The notes under the pieces are model-generated. The model saw nothing but the letters and a program-made list of their open reading frames with translations, did no database searches and was not told the origin of the DNA. 4,804 nt of DNA from a virus (taxonomy: Duplodnaviria > Heunggongvirae > Uroviricota > Caudoviricetes), in IMG/VR virus record IMGVR_UViG_2751185973_000008; one strand, given 5' to 3'. Position numbers and translations under genes: made by a program. The number at the start of each line of letters is the position of its first letter. The first letter of the stretch is position 1. Positions 1 through 4,804 of the stretch are shown one piece after another.

Positions 1-12
1 GCTTATAATCTG

Positions 13-285
13 GTGAGATATCAGATGATTAAAATGGCGGAACATCTGAAAGGTTACTGGCCGAATCAACTGAGTTTCTCAGAATCATGCGGAATGGTGA
101 TGAGAATGCTGATGACATTGCAGGGCGCTTCACCGGGACGTATACCGGAGCTGATGCGCGATCTTGCAAGTATGGGACAACTTGTGAAATTACCGACGAG
201 AAGGGGAAGGGCCTTCCCGAGAGTGGTAAAGGAGAGGCCCTGGAAATACCCCACAGCCCCGAAAAAGAGCCAGTCAGTTGCTTAA
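13..285 (+). CDS. Hypothetical ORF, 90 aa, no family recognised; may be the 3' end of a longer gene
   Basis: ORF track. The frame stays open back to position 1 (AYNL precedes the GTG at 13), so the ORF may continue beyond the window. It ends at TAA 283-285, and the same frame continues straight into the invertase remnant. No motif I recognise and no obvious Shine-Dalgarno upstream of 13. Confidence 0.2.
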   Translation: MRYQMIKMAEHLKGYWPNQLSFSESCGMVMRMLMTLQGASPGRIPELMRDLASMGQLVKLPTRRGRAFPRVVKERPWKYPTAPKKSQSVA

Positions 286-609
286 CTGACTGGCATTACT
301 TCTCCAATGGGGCGTTTTTTCTTCCACGTGATGGGTGCCCTGGCTGAAATGGAACGTGAATTAATTGTTGAACGTACACTGGCCGGGCTGGCGGCAGCGC
401 GCGCAAGGGGGCGCACAGGCGGACGTCGACCGAAGCTGACAAAAGAACAGCATGAGCAAATAGCAAGGCTAATCAAAAACGGGCACGACAGAAAACAACT
501 GGCAATAATTTACGGCATTGGCACATCGACGATTTATCGTTATCACCCTGTAGGCGATATACAGACTGAAGAAACAACCGGGCAGACTCAGGAAAATGAA
601 AACCGCTAA
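286..609 (+). pseudogene. 5'-truncated serine DNA invertase (Hin/Gin/Pin/Cin family); only the C-terminal ~107 codons remain
   Basis: Translation from 286 is LTGITSPMGRFFFHVMGALAEMERELIVERTLAGLAAARARGRTGGRRPKL...QLAIIYGIGTSTIYRY, which matches the conserved second half of Hin/Gin-type invertases (SPMGRFFFHVM...LAEMERELI...ERT, then the C-terminal helix-turn-helix). The N-terminal ~90 residues, including the catalytic serine region, are absent: an in-frame TAA sits at 283-285 and no upstream frame resembles an invertase N-terminus. No Shine-Dalgarno precedes the internal ATG at 307. Confidence 0.8.
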
Positions 610-628
610 TCTGACCATTAGCGGTTTT
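599..628. terminator. Bidirectional intrinsic terminator hairpin between the convergent invertase remnant and the gpU-like gene
   Basis: AAAACCGCTAAT (599-610) pairs perfectly with ATTAGCGGTTTT (617-628) around a 6-nt loop CTGACC, giving a 12-bp stem. On the plus strand it is followed by T, then GTGTT. On the minus strand it is followed by CATTTTCC. It lies about 10 nt past the U stop (640-638) and contains the invertase-fragment stop (607-609). Confidence 0.55.
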
Positions 629-637
629 TGTGTTAAA

Positions 638-1132
638 TCAGAACAGCCCTTTAACTGAACTGGCCGCGCTGTTAAGAGATGATGTCACCTTATCTTTGAA
701 GCCGGACAGCATATCACTGAACGATGAGGATTGCAGGCGCTCCCGCAAATCCTCATCACAGCGTTCAAGAGTCAGTGAAAATTCTATCTTTTTCGCCTTA
801 CCGTAGCGATCAAACTCGGAGCGGGTCGTATTCGTTTCAGTCAGGACATACATGCCGTAAATCTGCCCGACGCCATCAATCAAAGGCCAGGGTCGTCCTG
901 TATACGCCTGCGTGGTCAGCAGCGACAGCGACACTTCGCCACCTGTAATTTCAGGATAAAGCACACCAGAAAGAACGATGCGATCATCACCTGCACCGAT
1001 ATACTGCCAGCTTGCTGAACGGTTAACGCGTTCATTTTTCACATGCCGCCAGCTTTTGTTTTGCTGTAACTGCTGATGCGGCAGCGTGCGCAGCTCAAAA
1101 ACAAACATGCCGTAGATCATCATCATGGCCAT
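638..1132 (-). CDS. Phage tail protein, P2 gpU-like, 164 aa from the first ATG; the more likely start is ATG 1126, giving MMMIYG...
   Basis: ORF track. The N-terminus MAMMMIYGMFVFELRTLPHQQLQQNKSWRH resembles the gpU family as I remember it (MMM..G.FVF.L.T.P.Q.L); this is recall, not alignment. The gene sits immediately after the tape measure gene, as U does in the P2 FETUD tail operon. GAGGAG (1140-1135) overlaps the tape measure stop TGA (1141-1139); it is 2 nt from ATG 1132 and 8 nt from ATG 1126. Confidence 0.7.
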   Translation of the reverse strand: MAMMMIYGMFVFELRTLPHQQLQQNKSWRHVKNERVNRSASWQYIGAGDDRIVLSGVLYPEITGGEVSLSLLTTQAYTGRPWPLIDGVGQIYGMYVLTETNTTRSEFDRYGKAKKIEFSLTLERCDEDLRERLQSSSFSDMLSGFKDKVTSSLNSAASSVKGLF

Positions 1133-1134
1133 GA

Positions 1135-1140
1135 CTCCTC
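1135..1140 (-). promoter_or_regulatory. Shine-Dalgarno for the gpU-like gene, overlapping the tape measure stop codon (translational coupling)
   Basis: Minus strand reads GAT TGA GGAGTC ATG GCC ATG ATG ATG; the GAGGAG includes the TGA stop of the upstream gene. Confidence 0.6.
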
Positions 1141-3982
1141 AATCTTTATCGTAAAAACAGCCACGCCCGGCACGGGCGCGCCGTTCCATTTCTGCCCTGA
1201 CCATTTCACCGACCAGTTTCGCCAGTTCGCGGGGATTCTGCGTAACAACGTTATGCAGATGAACATGAATTTCACCACCAAATCCGGAGGCAACAGGCTC
1301 CCGGTTACGGGAAGTTACAGGAACTGATGCCACTGGAGATCGTATAGCCTCCGCCACCGGGCGGGAGCTGGCCGCAACAACAGGGACCAGCGCCGGAGGC
1401 AGCGGAGCCGGAACCACGGGTGTGATATTAATTGCGGGGGCAGGCTTACTGACCTGCGCAATCTTCCGCTCCTGCCACTCCCCACGAACAGCAAGTGCTC
1501 GGGGCAGGTTTTTAAAGACAATATCGCCGGGGCCAATGCGTTTTTTCGTCTCCTCAACCAGCTTACCTGTGTTATCAGCAATTTTGCTGAGTCTGCGCAG
1601 CGTACCGGTATTGCTGTCTGTGAGCGGTTTATTGTCTTTGGGGTTATCACCTCCGGTGCCATTGCCATTTTCCACAGGCTTCGGCGGATTGATTTTCGCC
1701 AGGTCCCCCTGAAGCAAGGCAACCTTGTCCTGAAGAATGGCCGCACGCTGTGCGTCTTCGATTTTCTTGCGCGCCCTTTCCGCTTCATCCGGAAGCACAC
1801 CAAGCTTTTCAAGTATCCACGCCAGCGTATCCAGCAACATTTTTGCAGGTGTCAGAACAAGTTGTAACGCACCGCCAAGAACGTTACCGAATATCTCGCC
1901 AGCACTGGTACATTTATCCAGAGTTTCCTTGCTGGACTCCATCGGTGACAGCAGCGATTTAAACCAGTTAAACACCTGGCTGATCCCACTCCCGATTGCG
2001 TCAAAAACAGGACCAAACCGTTCAAATGTTTCGCGCAACGGGGTCAGCCTTTCCATAATCCCGCTGAACACCCCGGCAAAAAATGCCCTGATGGGATCCC
2101 AGTATTTCCAGATAAGAACGGCAGCTCCGGCAAGCGCAGCCACGATAAGACCAACCGGACTGAACAACGCCCCGATAGCGCCTCCCAGTAAAGAAACGGA
2201 ACCCGTCACCATTCCCCATAGTGCTGGCAGAACCCTGACAGCATTCATTGATCCGGTCAGGAGGGAAAAACCAAGACGCAGTTTTGCCAGCGGGCCAGCA
2301 AGCACACCAATAGCCAGCGACAACGAGCCAACCGTTGCAGTCATTGCCAGCAATGCACCGCCTGCAATCAGTAGCTGGCGCGTCAGTGCGGGATGGGCCT
2401 GCGCCAGCGCCGTCACCTTTGATACCACACGCGTGAGCCACTGCGTGACAGAACGCAGCGGACCGTCAATCAGATCTGCAATGCGGATGCGCAACCCTTC
2501 CCATGCACTGCTGAGTGATTTCAGATCGCCGTCAAGGTTGTTGGCCATAACCTTTGCCGTGCGTTCAGCCTCACCGCGCGCGCCTTCAAGTTCTTTTCTC
2601 AGTTTGGGTAAGGAGCCGTCACCTGCCGCATCAACGAGGGCCATAAATGATGTGAAAGCCTCTTCTCCGGCAATGTCCTTAAAGAACGATACCCGGTCAA
2701 CTTCCCCGTATTTGCGGGTAGCTTTATAAAGGTCAGCCAGCACATCCTCCATCGGGCGCATTTTGCCCCCGGCATCCGAGACAGACACGCCAAGCTCTTT
2801 CAGCGCCTCTGCTGCCGCCTTTGGCGGTGATGCCAGACGAGCCAGGCTGGCACGCATTGCCGTACCAGCATCACTCCCCCTGATACCCATATTCGCCAGC
2901 ACGCCCGCCATCGCTGCGGCCTGCTCCAGAGATATTCCCAGCTTACCCGCCACCGGACCTGCATATTTCATGGTTTCACCCAGTGCGCGAAGGTCAGTGT
3001 TGGTACGGGTAAACGCTGCGGTGAGTGTGTCGCCGACCCGGTCCATCTGGTCAGCAGAAAGACCGAACTGCGTCAGAATATTTGAGCCAATATCCGCCGT
3101 CTCACCGAGGTCCATACCGCCAGCCGTTGCCATGCTCAGTACGCCAGGGAGCGCAGCCTGAATGGCCTGTGGTGTAAAGCCAGCCATTGCAAGAAATGCC
3201 TGTCCACTGGCGGCATCGCCTGCGGTGAACTGCGTTTCAGAGCCAAGTTTTAACGCCTGCTCACGCAGCGCCTTAAACTGCGGGCTGTTCTGGTCGATTC
3301 GCGTCAGTGCCTGAACGCGGAACATCTCTTTGCCGAACCCGATCGCAGGCTGCAAAAAACGCCCGGCAGCATAGCCGCCCGCCGCTGCCGCACCAATTGC
3401 CAGCGCACCACCTGTTTTCAGTTTTCCCGCTGTTTCCTGCGCGCGCGAATACCGCTCACGCGCCCGTGTTACACGCGCAAGCGCCTGCCGTTCGCGTTCA
3501 AGCTGGTTGTTGTACTGTTCGGTGCGTCTGATGGCCTGCTGGATGGTGTTATCGCTGCCTGTCAGGGAAATGCCGTGGCGTTTCAGCTCTCCGCCAAGCT
3601 CCCGCATTTTCTGAATTTCCCGTGTGCGCGATTCATTCAGGCGTTCAAGCCGGGTGCTTAACTGCTGCATCAGCTTTTGTTGTTTTTCGCTGAGCACTGT
3701 ACCCGTGCGTTGTAACTGATTAAGGGCGTTAAGCTGGCGTCGTGCTTTCACGATGCCCGCATCCGCTTTACTGACAGCGTCACGGGCGCGCTCAAATGAT
3801 CGCGCCTGACGCTCGAGATTTTTGATCGCCCCCTGCGTTCGCTGGATGGAGTCACCAAACTGCCCCATCAGGCGGCGGGCGTTTTCGGCAGGCCGGGTCA
3901 GCCTGTCAACGGCGCTGAAAGCGACCCGGATATCAAGAGTCTTCATTGTCTGCATTCCCGCTACGAAGTGCCGCTCGCTCAC
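1139..3982 (-). CDS. Phage tail tape measure protein, 947 aa from GTG 3982; a start at ATG 3946 (MKTLDIRVAFSAVD...) or ATG 3955 is possible
   Basis: Single 2844-nt ORF. The N-terminal third is coiled-coil-like and rich in Q/R/E/L/A. The centre has long Gly/Ala-rich hydrophobic stretches (LLIAGGALLAMTATVGSLSLAIGVLAGPL...GLIVAALAGAAVLIWKYW, about 2099-2390). The C-terminus has a Pro/Ala/Val-rich low-complexity segment (about 1315-1452). It sits directly downstream of an overlapping chaperone pair and upstream of a gpU-like gene. The only ambiguity is the start codon. Confidence 0.9.
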   Translation of the reverse strand: MSERHFVAGMQTMKTLDIRVAFSAVDRLTRPAENARRLMGQFGDSIQRTQGAIKNLERQARSFERARDAVSKADAGIVKARRQLNALNQLQRTGTVLSEKQQKLMQQLSTRLERLNESRTREIQKMRELGGELKRHGISLTGSDNTIQQAIRRTEQYNNQLERERQALARVTRARERYSRAQETAGKLKTGGALAIGAAAAGGYAAGRFLQPAIGFGKEMFRVQALTRIDQNSPQFKALREQALKLGSETQFTAGDAASGQAFLAMAGFTPQAIQAALPGVLSMATAGGMDLGETADIGSNILTQFGLSADQMDRVGDTLTAAFTRTNTDLRALGETMKYAGPVAGKLGISLEQAAAMAGVLANMGIRGSDAGTAMRASLARLASPPKAAAEALKELGVSVSDAGGKMRPMEDVLADLYKATRKYGEVDRVSFFKDIAGEEAFTSFMALVDAAGDGSLPKLRKELEGARGEAERTAKVMANNLDGDLKSLSSAWEGLRIRIADLIDGPLRSVTQWLTRVVSKVTALAQAHPALTRQLLIAGGALLAMTATVGSLSLAIGVLAGPLAKLRLGFSLLTGSMNAVRVLPALWGMVTGSVSLLGGAIGALFSPVGLIVAALAGAAVLIWKYWDPIRAFFAGVFSGIMERLTPLRETFERFGPVFDAIGSGISQVFNWFKSLLSPMESSKETLDKCTSAGEIFGNVLGGALQLVLTPAKMLLDTLAWILEKLGVLPDEAERARKKIEDAQRAAILQDKVALLQGDLAKINPPKPVENGNGTGGDNPKDNKPLTDSNTGTLRRLSKIADNTGKLVEETKKRIGPGDIVFKNLPRALAVRGEWQERKIAQVSKPAPAINITPVVPAPLPPALVPVVAASSRPVAEAIRSPVASVPVTSRNREPVASGFGGEIHVHLHNVVTQNPRELAKLVGEMVRAEMERRARAGRGCFYDKD

Positions 3983-4471
3983 GCCAGCTAACCACTTCGC
4001 AGGGCGTCATCATGAAGATTTCGGCGGGCGACCAGTTAAAAATGGCGGCAATATCCGCCACCAGATCTTCGATGTGCTCAAAGCACACCAGGGTGATTAC
4101 GCTGCCGTCTCCTGCACGCTCTTCGCGCCAGAGTCTGGCTCGCTCATAAAATTTACAGCCACAGCGCACAACTGAATAAAATCGCGTGACGACATTTTTT
4201 TAATCATCACTTCATCCAGTCGTGGCGAGGTCACGCGAGGCAACAGCGTGAACATGGTATCCGCTTTCAGATTCAGCACATCAGACAGCGACAGACCACG
4301 CAGGGATCCAGCCTGCTCAATAGCCCCGGTGATCTCCACATACGTGATTTTTTCGCCACCACGCTCAATTGGTCGGGTCAGTTTTACGCCACGTTCGACA
4401 GCCATATCCTCAACTGCCGTCACATTATCCGCCACGGTGTTATTCCGGGTTTCAGTATCGATGTCTTTCAT
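3933..4471 (-). CDS. Tail assembly chaperone fusion E+E' (gpGT analogue) made by programmed -1 ribosomal frameshift; about 179 aa if the shift is at 4154-4148
   Basis: The -1 frame relative to E is open from TAA (4202-4200) to TGA (3935-3933) and overlaps the last ~35 codons of E and the first codons of the tape measure gene. E codons start at coordinates of residue 1 mod 3 and E' codons at residue 2 mod 3, which on the minus strand is exactly a -1 shift. The in-frame heptamer A AAT TTT (4154-4148) reads AAT TTT in the E frame and AAA TTT after the slip, continuing YERARLW in E'. Confidence 0.6.
4097..4471 (-). CDS. Tail assembly chaperone, P2 gpE-like (lambda gpG analogue), 124 aa
   Basis: ORF track. 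Strong Shine-Dalgarno AGGAG (4483-4479) lies 7 nt before ATG 4471. A small ORF immediately upstream of the tape measure gene whose 3' part is overlapped by a -1 frame ORF is the conserved chaperone architecture of long-tailed phages. The translation contains SLRGLSLSDVLNLKADTMFTLLPRVTSPRL. Confidence 0.8.
   Translation of the reverse strand: MKDIDTETRNNTVADNVTAVEDMAVERGVKLTRPIERGGEKITYVEITGAIEQAGSLRGLSLSDVLNLKADTMFTLLPRVTSPRLDEVMIKKMSSRDFIQLCAVAVNFMSEPDSGAKSVQETAA
4148..4154 (-). other. Candidate -1 slippery heptamer A AAT TTT for the E to E' shift
   Basis: X XXY YYZ pattern in the correct phase within the E/E' overlap. An alternative is the A7 run at 4201-4195 (ATT AAA AAA ATG in the E frame), but the -1 frame has a TAA at 4202-4200, so the P-site re-pairing would be imperfect. 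Confidence 0.4.
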
Positions 4472-4478
4472 CTGTTGT

Positions 4479-4483
4479 CTCCT
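4479..4483 (-). promoter_or_regulatory. Shine-Dalgarno for the E-like chaperone
   Basis: Minus strand reads ACTGAAAAGGAGACAACAG ATG; AGGAG with a 7-nt spacer. Confidence 0.7.
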
Positions 4484-4526
4484 TTTCAGTCAGAGGCGAC
4501 GCACTGCGCCGCCAGCATATTACTTA

Positions 4527-4584
4527 TCAGCCAAGCCCAAGCGCGGAACGGATGCGATCGGGCACAATGTCCTTGCCGTCCTTC
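4527..4584 (-). pseudogene. Possible 3' end (last 18 codons) of a tail tube (P2 FII-like) gene cut by the IS1 insertion
   Basis: The minus-strand frame ending at TGA (4529-4527) reads KDGKDIVPDRIRSALGLG and is the most protein-like of the three frames between IS1 and E. Its position, directly upstream of E with a 55-nt gap, matches the FII-E order in P2-like tail operons. The link to FII is positional only, with a vague recollection of the family's C-terminus. Confidence 0.3.
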
Positions 4585-4607
4585 GGTGATGCTGCCAACT
4601 TACTGAT
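4585..4607 (+). repeat. IS1 left terminal inverted repeat (IRL, 23 bp)
   Basis: Exact IS1 end sequence GGTGATGCTGCCAACTTACTGAT. The flanking 9 bp on the outside are CCGTCCTTC (4576-4584). Confidence 0.9.
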
Positions 4608-4639
4608 TTAGTGTATGATGGTGTTTTTGAGGTGCTCCA

Positions 4640-4804
4640 GTGGCTTCTGTTTCTATCAGCTGTCCCTCCTGTTCAGCTACTGACGGGGTGGTGCGTAACG
4701 GCAAAAGCACTGCCGGACATCAGCGCTATCTCTGCTCTCACTGCCGTAAAACATGGCAACTGCAGTTCACTTACACCGCTTCTCAACCCGGTACGCACCA
4801 GAAA
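4640..4804 (+). CDS. insA: IS1 InsA (transposition repressor / N-terminal part of the InsAB' transposase), first 55 codons; partial
   Basis: A GTG start at 4640 is preceded by GAGGTG. Translation is [55 protein letters not shown], the InsA N-terminus with its zinc-finger cysteines. It is missing from the ORF track because it has no stop inside the window. Confidence 0.9.

Follow-up and report, generated by a model that had tools for sequence, protein, structure and literature searches.

A probable P2-type tail assembly chaperone pair with a predicted -1 frameshift at a variant slippery heptamer, located between two insertion sequences

The closest known counterpart of the locus analyzed here is the gpE/gpE+E' pair of phage P2, followed by Orf51/Orf52 of phage 186 and E/E' of Fels-2, with the Pfam families PF10109 and PF06528 covering the two parts. 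P2 is described as shifting at TTTTTTG, leading to a 91-aa E and a 142-aa E+E' (PMC3091744). The gpG/gpGT pair of phage lambda belongs to a siphovirus tail and uses the heptamer G GGA AAG; the likeness is one of mechanism (PMC5009743) and not of family membership, and is considered here as functional analogy alone. The window, i.e., the whole stretch of 4,804 nucleotides that was analyzed (IMG/VR virus record IMGVR_UViG_2751185973_000008, Caudoviricetes), carries a pair of the well-known P2 kind, which is an ordinary member with a slightly unusual slip sequence. Its features are the following:

4527 to 4584, minus strand: the final approximately 19 codons of FII, the tail tube gene, severed by IS1; the FII stop of the intact relative L001 maps to 4527.
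4479 to 4484, minus strand: Shine-Dalgarno AAGGAG, read from the sequence, 7 nt 5' of the E start codon.
4097 to 4471, minus strand: open reading frame of gene E, tail assembly chaperone, 124 aa by standard decoding.
4195 to 4201, minus strand: A7 run, an alternative site; frame 0 reads ATT AAA AAA ATG, i.e., T AAA AAA.
4148 to 4154, minus strand: in-phase slippery heptamer A AAT TTT (form X XXY YYZ), where the -1 slip is predicted.
3933 to 4148, minus strand: E' extension, 71 codons of the -1 frame read from the slip onwards, followed by TGA 3935-3933.
3954 to 4061, minus strand: Phage_P2_GpE domain (Pfam PF06528) in E'.
1139 to 3946, minus strand: tape measure gene T, 935 aa from ATG 3946 (Pfam PhageMin_Tail, E-value 3.7e-58).
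638 to 1126, minus strand: gene U, a tail protein, 3' of T (Pfam Phage_P2_GpU, E-value 5.5e-39; PGAP CDS in L001).

In P2 the pair is flanked by the tube gene FII and the tape measure gene T; similarly, E and E' are placed here between the FII remnant (4584-4527) and T (3946), and intact relatives have the gene order FI-FII-E-E'-T-U. E starts with ATG at 4471 and stops with TAA at 4099-4097, and PGAP annotates the same E CDS in intact relatives; ATG 3946 is likewise the PGAP start of T in these relatives, including L001. After a TAA at 4202-4200, the -1 frame stays open from 4199 until TGA at 3935-3933. The end of E' overlaps the first 14 nt of T, as in P2, where E' also ends a few bases inside T. 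A preliminary description of this DNA had already given these coordinates for E and the -1 frame as well as a TAA of the -1 frame beside the A7 run, all of which hold.

Both parts of the pair have recognizable relatives. E matches PHROG 103, annotated as "tail protein" (E-value 8e-37), and Pfam Phage_TAC_7 (PF10109) with 20.7 bits (E-value 4e-4), which is below the gathering cut-off of 25. E' matches PHROG 1756 (E-value 2e-41), and residues 47-82 of the -1 open reading frame match positions 1-36 of the 37 positions of the Phage_P2_GpE profile with 46.2 bits (cut-off 23; E-value 3.2e-12). In NCBIfam no match was obtained for E, E', or the fusion. Downstream (3') of the E stop, substitutions suit the -1 frame better than frame 0. 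The preliminary description had proposed the P2 E/E+E' arrangement, similar to lambda G/GT, which is supported by the GpE domain above its curated cut-off in the -1 product, as in known E' extensions, and by the alignment of the fusion with P2 gpE+E'. The 179 aa align end to end, straight through the junction (BLASTP E-value 7e-29, 33% identity over 153 columns), with E aligning to P2 gpE as part of this alignment and residue F108 falling in a column in which Phe is nearly invariant. Furthermore, tblastn of the fusion matched 403 phage records, and among the matches listed 59 out of 60, including P2, 186 and Fels-2, fell into two pieces. Compared with P2, E of the window has a 22-residue N-terminal extension (residue 23 corresponds to P2 residue 1), the linker from the junction to the GpE domain exceeds that of P2 by about 10 residues, seen as a single 10-residue gap in P2, and the overlap from the slip site to the E stop comprises 16 codons instead of 6.

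Based on the directly observed geometry of the open reading frames, the homology that each half shows to P2 gpE+E' and an in-phase heptamer kept at one position across relatives, E and E+E' are very probably the tail assembly chaperone pair of a P2-like prophage (Peduoviridae, Xuanwuvirus-type) made by a -1 slip. Most ribosomes would translate from ATG 4471 to TAA 4097 and produce the 124-aa E. A minority would slip back by one base at A AAU UUU (4154-4148), where the P-site tRNA-Asn would move from AAU to AAA and the A-site tRNA-Phe from UUU to UUU, and would then continue in the -1 frame to TGA 3933. The resulting 179-aa E+E' would consist of E residues 1-108 and a 71-residue arm ending in the GpE domain. 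That ribosomes slip at this variant heptamer, and how often, we infer from sequence, the slip itself from the position of the motif and its class. By analogy to lambda G/GT and P2 E/E+E', the shared E part can be assumed to coat the tape measure protein T and the E' arm to recruit the tube protein, and the slip frequency would set a fixed E : E+E' ratio; the binding roles of both parts are thus taken over from these systems.

The heptamer is in the X XXY YYZ phase because the zero-frame codons are GTA AAT TTT ATG. As the preliminary description had predicted for 4154-4148, a slip there leads to 108 + 71 = 179 aa with the junction ...AVNF|YERARLW...; the predicted tryptic junction peptide is DFIQLCAVAVNFYER, and the peptide diagnostic of unshifted E is DFIQLCAVAVNFMSEPDSGAK. 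A AAT TTT shares its alignment column with T TTT TTG of P2, 186 and other sampled Peduoviridae. Similar to P2, a -1 shift at the same slip column with the Phe codon TTT within the heptamer is predicted; unlike P2, the heptamer lies one codon upstream of the P2 register, since the TTG codon of the family is ATG here. After the slip, tRNA-Phe would re-pair cognately in the A site of the window, whereas in P2 tRNA-Leu would re-pair near-cognately.

The comparison of the heptamer across related prophages, which had been proposed as a check, revealed an in-phase heptamer at the P2 slip column, which decides between the two candidate sites in favour of 4154-4148. Two sets of relatives were used, 16 reference Peduoviridae loci and 65 distinct IMG/VR relatives. 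All 16 reference loci contain an in-phase heptamer in the same stretch, which is T TTT TTG in 13 of them (Ec500465-2 among these also has A AAT TTT) and T TTT TTT, C CCT TTC, and A AAT TTT (Ec503458) in one each. In 15 of the 16 it is located at the GTA AAT TTT ATG column of the window, the other being G GGA AAG of a Mannheimia phage 19 columns downstream in alignment A1. Among the IMG/VR relatives, 63 out of 65 have an in-phase heptamer, 15-19 codons 5' of the E stop except for three SEN5-like loci (22 codons): C CCT TTC (19), T TTT TTG (18), A AAT TTT (8), A AAT TTT together with T TTT TTG (7), C CCT TTT together with T TTT TTG (7), and T TTT TTA (4). The two exceptions are T7 and T8 homopolymer-length variants exactly at the slip spot, and a single frame spans E and E' in the T7 variant (L111). 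Close relatives carry GTA AAT TTT TTG, C CCT TTC or T TTT TTA at the slip column. In L125 a TAA of the -1 frame stands immediately before TTT TTT, and therefore the productive shift is not upstream of the slip column.

Two sister lineages encode these E/E' proteins as well (50-85% identity), and their heptamers share the column of that in the window. The lineage of the P88/500465-2 type has GTA AAT TTT TTG and keeps both overlapping heptamers, whereas the lineage of the window has lost T TTT TTG; the Klebsiella Reipivirus type has C CCT TTC TTG, in which T TTT TTG is replaced by C CCT TTC. Hence, in the clade of the window the predicted slip position is conserved and the heptamer sequence turns over. 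Among the 79 close loci the slip region is invariant. The 61-nt slip region occurs in 599 of the 5426 complete E. coli genomes; its match reaches 99% identity or more in 526 records.

For a heptamer plus an open -1 frame, chance by itself cannot be neglected: E, T, and U contain three in-phase heptamers in 1224 codons, corresponding to about 0.08 expected in the 34-codon overlap, and an 88-codon open -1 frame arose in 1.2% of mononucleotide shuffles. It is homology that takes the finding beyond chance, namely the GpE domain encoded by the -1 frame and the conserved position of the heptamer.

Frameshift cassettes of the dnaX, IS3 or IS911 type have a hairpin or pseudoknot and/or an SD-like element, whereas conserved ones are absent from the site of the window, and P2 is likewise reported to be without a conserved stimulatory RNA structure. 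RNAalifold on 12 lineages returned zero pairs, hence no conserved downstream fold, and the folds of the individual lineages are not homologous. A local hairpin starting 4 nt 3' of the heptamer (-18.9 kcal/mol, z -1.86, 10 of 200 shuffles as good) is unremarkable, and a longer 88-nt downstream fold has a z of -1.14. No GGAGG-like stimulator is present upstream of the heptamer in the window sequence, and Rfam at gathering thresholds gave no match anywhere in the window.

Whether the pair is still in use is a separate matter from what it is. The window ends in insertion sequences on both sides, which were not visible to the reader who prepared the preliminary description: an IS4 end at 1-298 truncates the invertase, and an IS1 end (approximately 4585-4804) falls within the 3' end of FII, at 113 nt 5' of E, where the match to intact prophages stops at 4587. 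These insertions make the prophage defective here and the E/E+E' pair probably vestigial; the pair is probably no longer used in the genome of the window because the operon is cut by IS1. We consider it likely that the locus is a genuine P2-type frameshift cassette left as a remnant, not expressed or not used after this dismantling by the IS1 cut in FII and the IS4 truncation of the invertase. Further decay in related IS1-bearing genomes is in line with this, as the tube gene is cut to 106 aa and T to 697 aa (L183) in genomes sharing the IS1; in one relative (L185) IS1 comes directly after the truncated tube gene. In the lineage of the window, moreover, E' has a Gly-to-Cys change at 4001, which is absent from 78 of 79 close relatives. 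However, none of E, E', T, and U is disrupted, intact prophages match the segment at 99.7-99.8% identity, and use may be supplied by read-out from IS1 or by another P2-like prophage complementing in trans. CP026814.1 shows no mismatch to the window from the IS1 end through position 299 and has an intact invertase, and among complete E. coli genomes none contains the two IS junctions together. As a vestigial state concerns present use and not identity, it is compatible with the chaperone pair made by a -1 slip.

It is very unlikely that E' is instead a separate small gene with its own initiation and without any frameshift, although PGAP annotates it in this way. PGAP calls a 51-aa "GpE family phage tail protein" from GTG 4088, the gene caller of one relative (L184) a 78-aa E' from GTG 4169, both GTG codons being present in the window, and RefSeq/GenBank records of this lineage contain two separate CDS or omit E'. 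However, neither GTG is preceded by a Shine-Dalgarno sequence. Moreover, the in-phase heptamer is fixed at one column across relatives, whereas the start point of the -1 frame varies freely, and in P2 no start codon precedes the conserved DDLMAD motif in the -1 frame. In addition, P2 E+E' has been reported as a frameshift product (PMC3091744), and E and E' share one open reading frame in the L111 variant. In the records of O145:H28 RM12581 and of phages 503458, P88, and phiSM, E' is a free-standing small gene or omitted, and slippage is marked in none of these inspected records. The value of the -1 slip reading therefore lies mostly in annotation, as placing the slip at 4154-4148 would correct the product to 179 aa and supply a junction peptide that can be tested.

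Still less probable is a shift at A7 (4201-4195), whether tRNA-Lys were to slip on the ribosome or the slippage were to occur during transcription. It would join the fusion after ...MIKK, reading NVVTRFYSVVRCGCKFYERARLW..., with the junction KK-NVVTR, and since the window has an open -1 frame starting at 4199, such a shift would also reach E' and also yield 179 aa. A-runs and tRNA-Lys are described as intrinsically shifty (PMC4066793), and A7 is kept in 79 of 79 close loci. However, A7 is out of the canonical phase (T AAA AAA), is missing in L125 and L128, and in two members of the sister lineage (L007, L112) that keep it a TGA of the -1 frame falls between A7 and the heptamer. The A7 product would also replace the conserved E segment SRDFIQLCAVAVNF, which is alignable with the P2 family, and variants between A7 and the heptamer are five synonymous to one non-synonymous in frame 0 but one to five in the -1 frame. 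Seven A are also fewer than the run length usually needed for efficient transcriptional slippage. The A7 alternative of the preliminary description is thus rejected as a conserved productive site on phase, -1 stops in sister lineages, and polymorphism pattern. The T_TTT tetramer at 4181-4178 (GAT TTT ATT), an in-phase candidate absent from that description, was rejected as well: relatives carry GAC, so that the tetramer is not conserved, and in several lineages the -1 frame is closed immediately 5' of it.

For the slip at A AAT TTT, the variation among relatives is a small biological point, namely that the slip position is kept and not the heptamer sequence, and it opens no new question of tail assembly. 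The lineage of the window swapped U_UU.U_UU.G for H_HH.U_UU.Y, a class ranked highly efficient in E. coli reporter work; H_HH.U_UU.Y motifs, including A_AA.U_UU.U and C_CC.U_UU.C, are described among the most efficient ones in E. coli (PMC4066793). We raise only tentatively the idea of a fixed slip column at which the heptamer turns over (T TTT TTG, A AAT TTT TTG, A AAT TTT A, C CCT TTC, T TTT TTA) and of lineages differing in their E : E+E' ratios. If the efficiencies differ in native context, the lineages would run different ratios, and they would then form a natural series for how tightly the chaperone ratio is constrained, in which one could ask whether the ratio was re-tuned together with the longer E' linker of the clade. 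The slip region of phiSM, a plaque-forming phage (PMC6456863), is identical to that of the window, and the variant heptamer is therefore compatible with a viable phage.

The tail assembly chaperone gene E of the window and its -1 frame extension E' are members of the P2 E/E+E' family. The pair is laid out as follows.

4484-4479, minus strand: AAGGAG, 7 nt 5' of the E start codon
4471 (ATG) to 4099-4097 (TAA), minus strand: gene E, 124 aa
4202-4200, minus strand: TAA of the -1 frame, which is then open from 4199 to the TGA at 3935-3933 (88 codons)

Re-reading of the open reading frames, codons and motifs showed all coordinates of the preliminary description to be correct, and its assignment to the P2-type chaperones is borne out, since the -1 frame matches Pfam Phage_P2_GpE (46.2 bits against a cut-off of 23, E 3e-12, residues 47-82). 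The next gene after E' matches PhageMin_Tail, the tape measure family, and the gene 3' of the tape measure matches Phage_P2_GpU; E reaches 20.7 bits with Phage_TAC_7, under the cut-off of 25. E and E' fall into the PHROGs tail families 103 (8e-37) and 1756 (2e-41), respectively, and an NCBIfam search gave no match. Using the conceptual E+E' fusion, tblastn matched 403 phage records, including P2, 186 and Fels-2 as well as phages of Burkholderia, Ralstonia, Klebsiella, Yersinia and Mannheimia, and the match was in two pieces in 59 of 60 among the matches listed. The alignment of the fusion with P2 gpE+E' spans 153 columns (7e-29) and continues unbroken through the junction, where F108 of the window sits in a near-invariant Phe column (14-sequence alignment). 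Compared with P2, the window heptamer differs in sequence and its register lies one codon upstream, the overlap after the slip is 16 codons instead of 6, E has an N-terminal extension and the linker ahead of the GpE domain is longer. By analogy, the pair would be like lambda G/GT in how it works. Among classified phages, those of Xuanwuvirus (family Peduoviridae) are nearest.

The zero-frame codons at the candidate site are GCT GTA AAT TTT ATG, so that A AAT TTT (4154-4148) is in X XXY YYZ phase, and a conceptual slip there reproduces the predicted fusion of 108 + 71 = 179 aa with the junction AVNF-YERARLW. The tape measure gene T could start as early as GTG 3982; taking instead the PGAP start of intact relatives, ATG 3946, E' ends 14 nt within T. 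Chance statistics by themselves make a weak case for a frameshift cassette: three in-phase heptamers in the 1224 codons of E, T and U correspond to about 0.08 expected in the 34-codon overlap, and the -1 frame is open at such length in 1.2% of shuffles. Two further in-phase heptamers within T, G GGA AAA (codon 174, 3428-3422, minus strand) and T TTT TTG (codon 197, 3359-3353, minus strand), are followed by only 49 and 26 codons in the -1 frame and are probably incidental.

The arrangement itself is textbook; a modest addition is that relatives keep the slip column but exchange the heptamer. The suggested comparison across relatives found an in-phase heptamer in the same stretch of all 16 reference loci, which is T TTT TTG in 13 and T TTT TTT, C CCT TTC and A AAT TTT (Ec503458) in one each; Ec500465-2 has A AAT TTT in addition to T TTT TTG. 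In 15 of these loci the heptamer codes for the conserved x-F-L of E, the -1 frame there reading FF, the exception being a Mannheimia phage with G GGA AAG 19 alignment columns downstream, after an acidic insertion. The shared column reads GTA AAT TTT ATG in the window, GTA AAT TTT TTG, with both heptamers overlapping, in the sister lineage (500465-2, P88 type), and C CCT TTC TTG in one Klebsiella lineage. Of 65 distinct IMG/VR relatives, 63 carry an in-phase heptamer.

In-phase heptamers at 65 distinct IMG/VR loci
C CCT TTC: 19
T TTT TTG: 18
A AAT TTT: 8
A AAT TTT + T TTT TTG: 7
C CCT TTT + T TTT TTG: 7
T TTT TTA: 4
none: 2 (L111, L127)

The distance from heptamer to E stop is 15-19 codons in these relatives and 22 in three SEN5-like loci. 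The two loci with no heptamer have T7 (L111, 757-768) and T8 (L127, 739-752) instead of T6 at the slip site, and in L111 E and E' form one continuous ORF (...IVPFFDAYGLW...); whether homopolymer sequencing errors or natural indels, both variants mark the junction. Among close loci A AAT TTT is invariant (79/79).

Of the two slip sites originally put forward, A AAT TTT lies in the slip column of the relatives and is retained, whereas the A7 run (4201-4195) is discarded as a clade-wide site. In frame 0 the run reads ATT AAA AAA ATG, giving the non-canonical heptamer T AAA AAA. The related loci L007 and L112 have a -1 frame TGA between A7 and the heptamer, L125 has a TAA directly 5' of TTT TTT, and A7 is absent from L125 and L128; if the clade has one productive shift in common, it can therefore lie only at the heptamer column. 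A further in-phase T_TTT inside the open part of the -1 frame (GAT TTT ATT; 4181-4178, minus strand), not among the sites originally put forward, was rejected as a possible minor slip point, as it is not conserved: relatives have GAC and several a -1 stop just upstream. The polymorphism among 46 close haplotypes agrees with a shift at the heptamer column.

Synonymous / non-synonymous changes by frame, 46 close haplotypes
A7 to heptamer: frame 0, 5 / 1; -1 frame, 1 / 5
After the E stop: frame 0, 4 / 21; -1 frame, 14 / 11

By the accepted rules of frameshifting, P-site tRNA-Asn on AAU and A-site tRNA-Phe on UUU would re-pair on AAA and UUU, which would be fully cognate in the A site, whereas the A-site tRNA-Leu at U UUU UUG of P2 would re-pair only near-cognately. 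Sharma et al. (PMC4066793), who tried all 64 heptamers in E. coli, describe the top motifs as permitting cognate A-site re-pairing, with R_RR.U_UU.Y as a frameshift-prone exception; they count H_HH.U_UU.Y with the most efficient motifs of E. coli and give U_UU.U_UU.G in the eukaryotic list only. Both replacement heptamers of the clade, A_AA.U_UU.U and C_CC.U_UU.C, belong to the H_HH.U_UU.Y class. No frameshift stimulator was found in the window or across lineages: the window sequence 5' of the heptamer has no SD-like element, a local hairpin from 4 nt 3' of it does not stand out (-18.9 kcal/mol, z -1.86), no homologous downstream fold was found between lineages, RNAalifold predicted no pair over 12 lineages and Rfam gave no match. 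The same absence is reported for P2 and Burkholderia P2-like phages (PMC3091744). By analogy with P2 and lambda G/GT, the model for this role assignment (PMC5009743), binding of the tape measure would fall to E and to the corresponding part of E+E', and recruitment of the tube protein to E'.

Support for a working variant site is indirect; its best source is the Citrobacter phage phiSM, which is 98.5% identical over E-E' and has the same slip region, GTA AAT TTT ATG. Since phiSM forms plaques and lysogenizes E. coli K-12 (PMC6456863), a phage with A AAT TTT as its sole heptamer is viable. The 61-nt slip region is present in 599 of 5426 complete E. coli genomes, with at least 99% identity in 526 records; the inspected database records of the window lineage carry no slippage annotation. 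Positions 299-4587 are 99.7-99.8% identical to prophages of E. coli O145:H28 and many other strains, with the gene order FI-FII-E-E'-T-U beside invertase and tail fibre genes.

The window copy is flanked by insertion sequences.

1-298, plus strand: end of an IS4-family element, truncating a phage DNA invertase (recombinase family)
307-609, plus strand: invertase remnant, the C-terminal 100 residues of a ~199-aa protein
about 4585-4804, plus strand: left end of IS1 including the beginning of insA, within the tail tube gene FII, ~19 codons short of its stop and 113 nt upstream of E

CP026814.1 has the identical IS1 junction (0 mismatches over 363 nt) and matches the window perfectly from the end of IS1 as far as position 299; its tube gene, on the far side of IS1, is cut to 106 aa. 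Because IS1 lies inside FII, the tail operon of the window has neither a promoter link nor a complete tube gene. E, E', T and U are intact and probably relics. A Gly-to-Cys change in E' at 4001 (T in the window, G in 78 of 79 close relatives) and two N-terminal non-synonymous differences in E at 4413 and 4426 (G at both in 75 of 79), at all of which phiSM has the majority base, could reflect drift in a defective prophage.

A terminator-like hairpin at 4063-4043 (minus strand; 9-bp stem TGGTGGCGG-ATA-TTGCCGCCA, then TTTTT) lies within the most conserved E' motif, DLVADIAAIF, ~100 nt 5' of the T start; with 1 site in the scan and 0.7 expected from shuffled sequences, the hairpin probably just reflects the coding sequence. 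In the intact relative E. coli O145:H28 RM12581 (6340-13495), the FI-FII-E-T-U block is transcribed against D and ogr, and ~157 bp separate the starts of FI and D. P2 has these genes in a single FETUD operon, and the arrangement of the relative may reflect a lineage-specific inversion beside the invertase.
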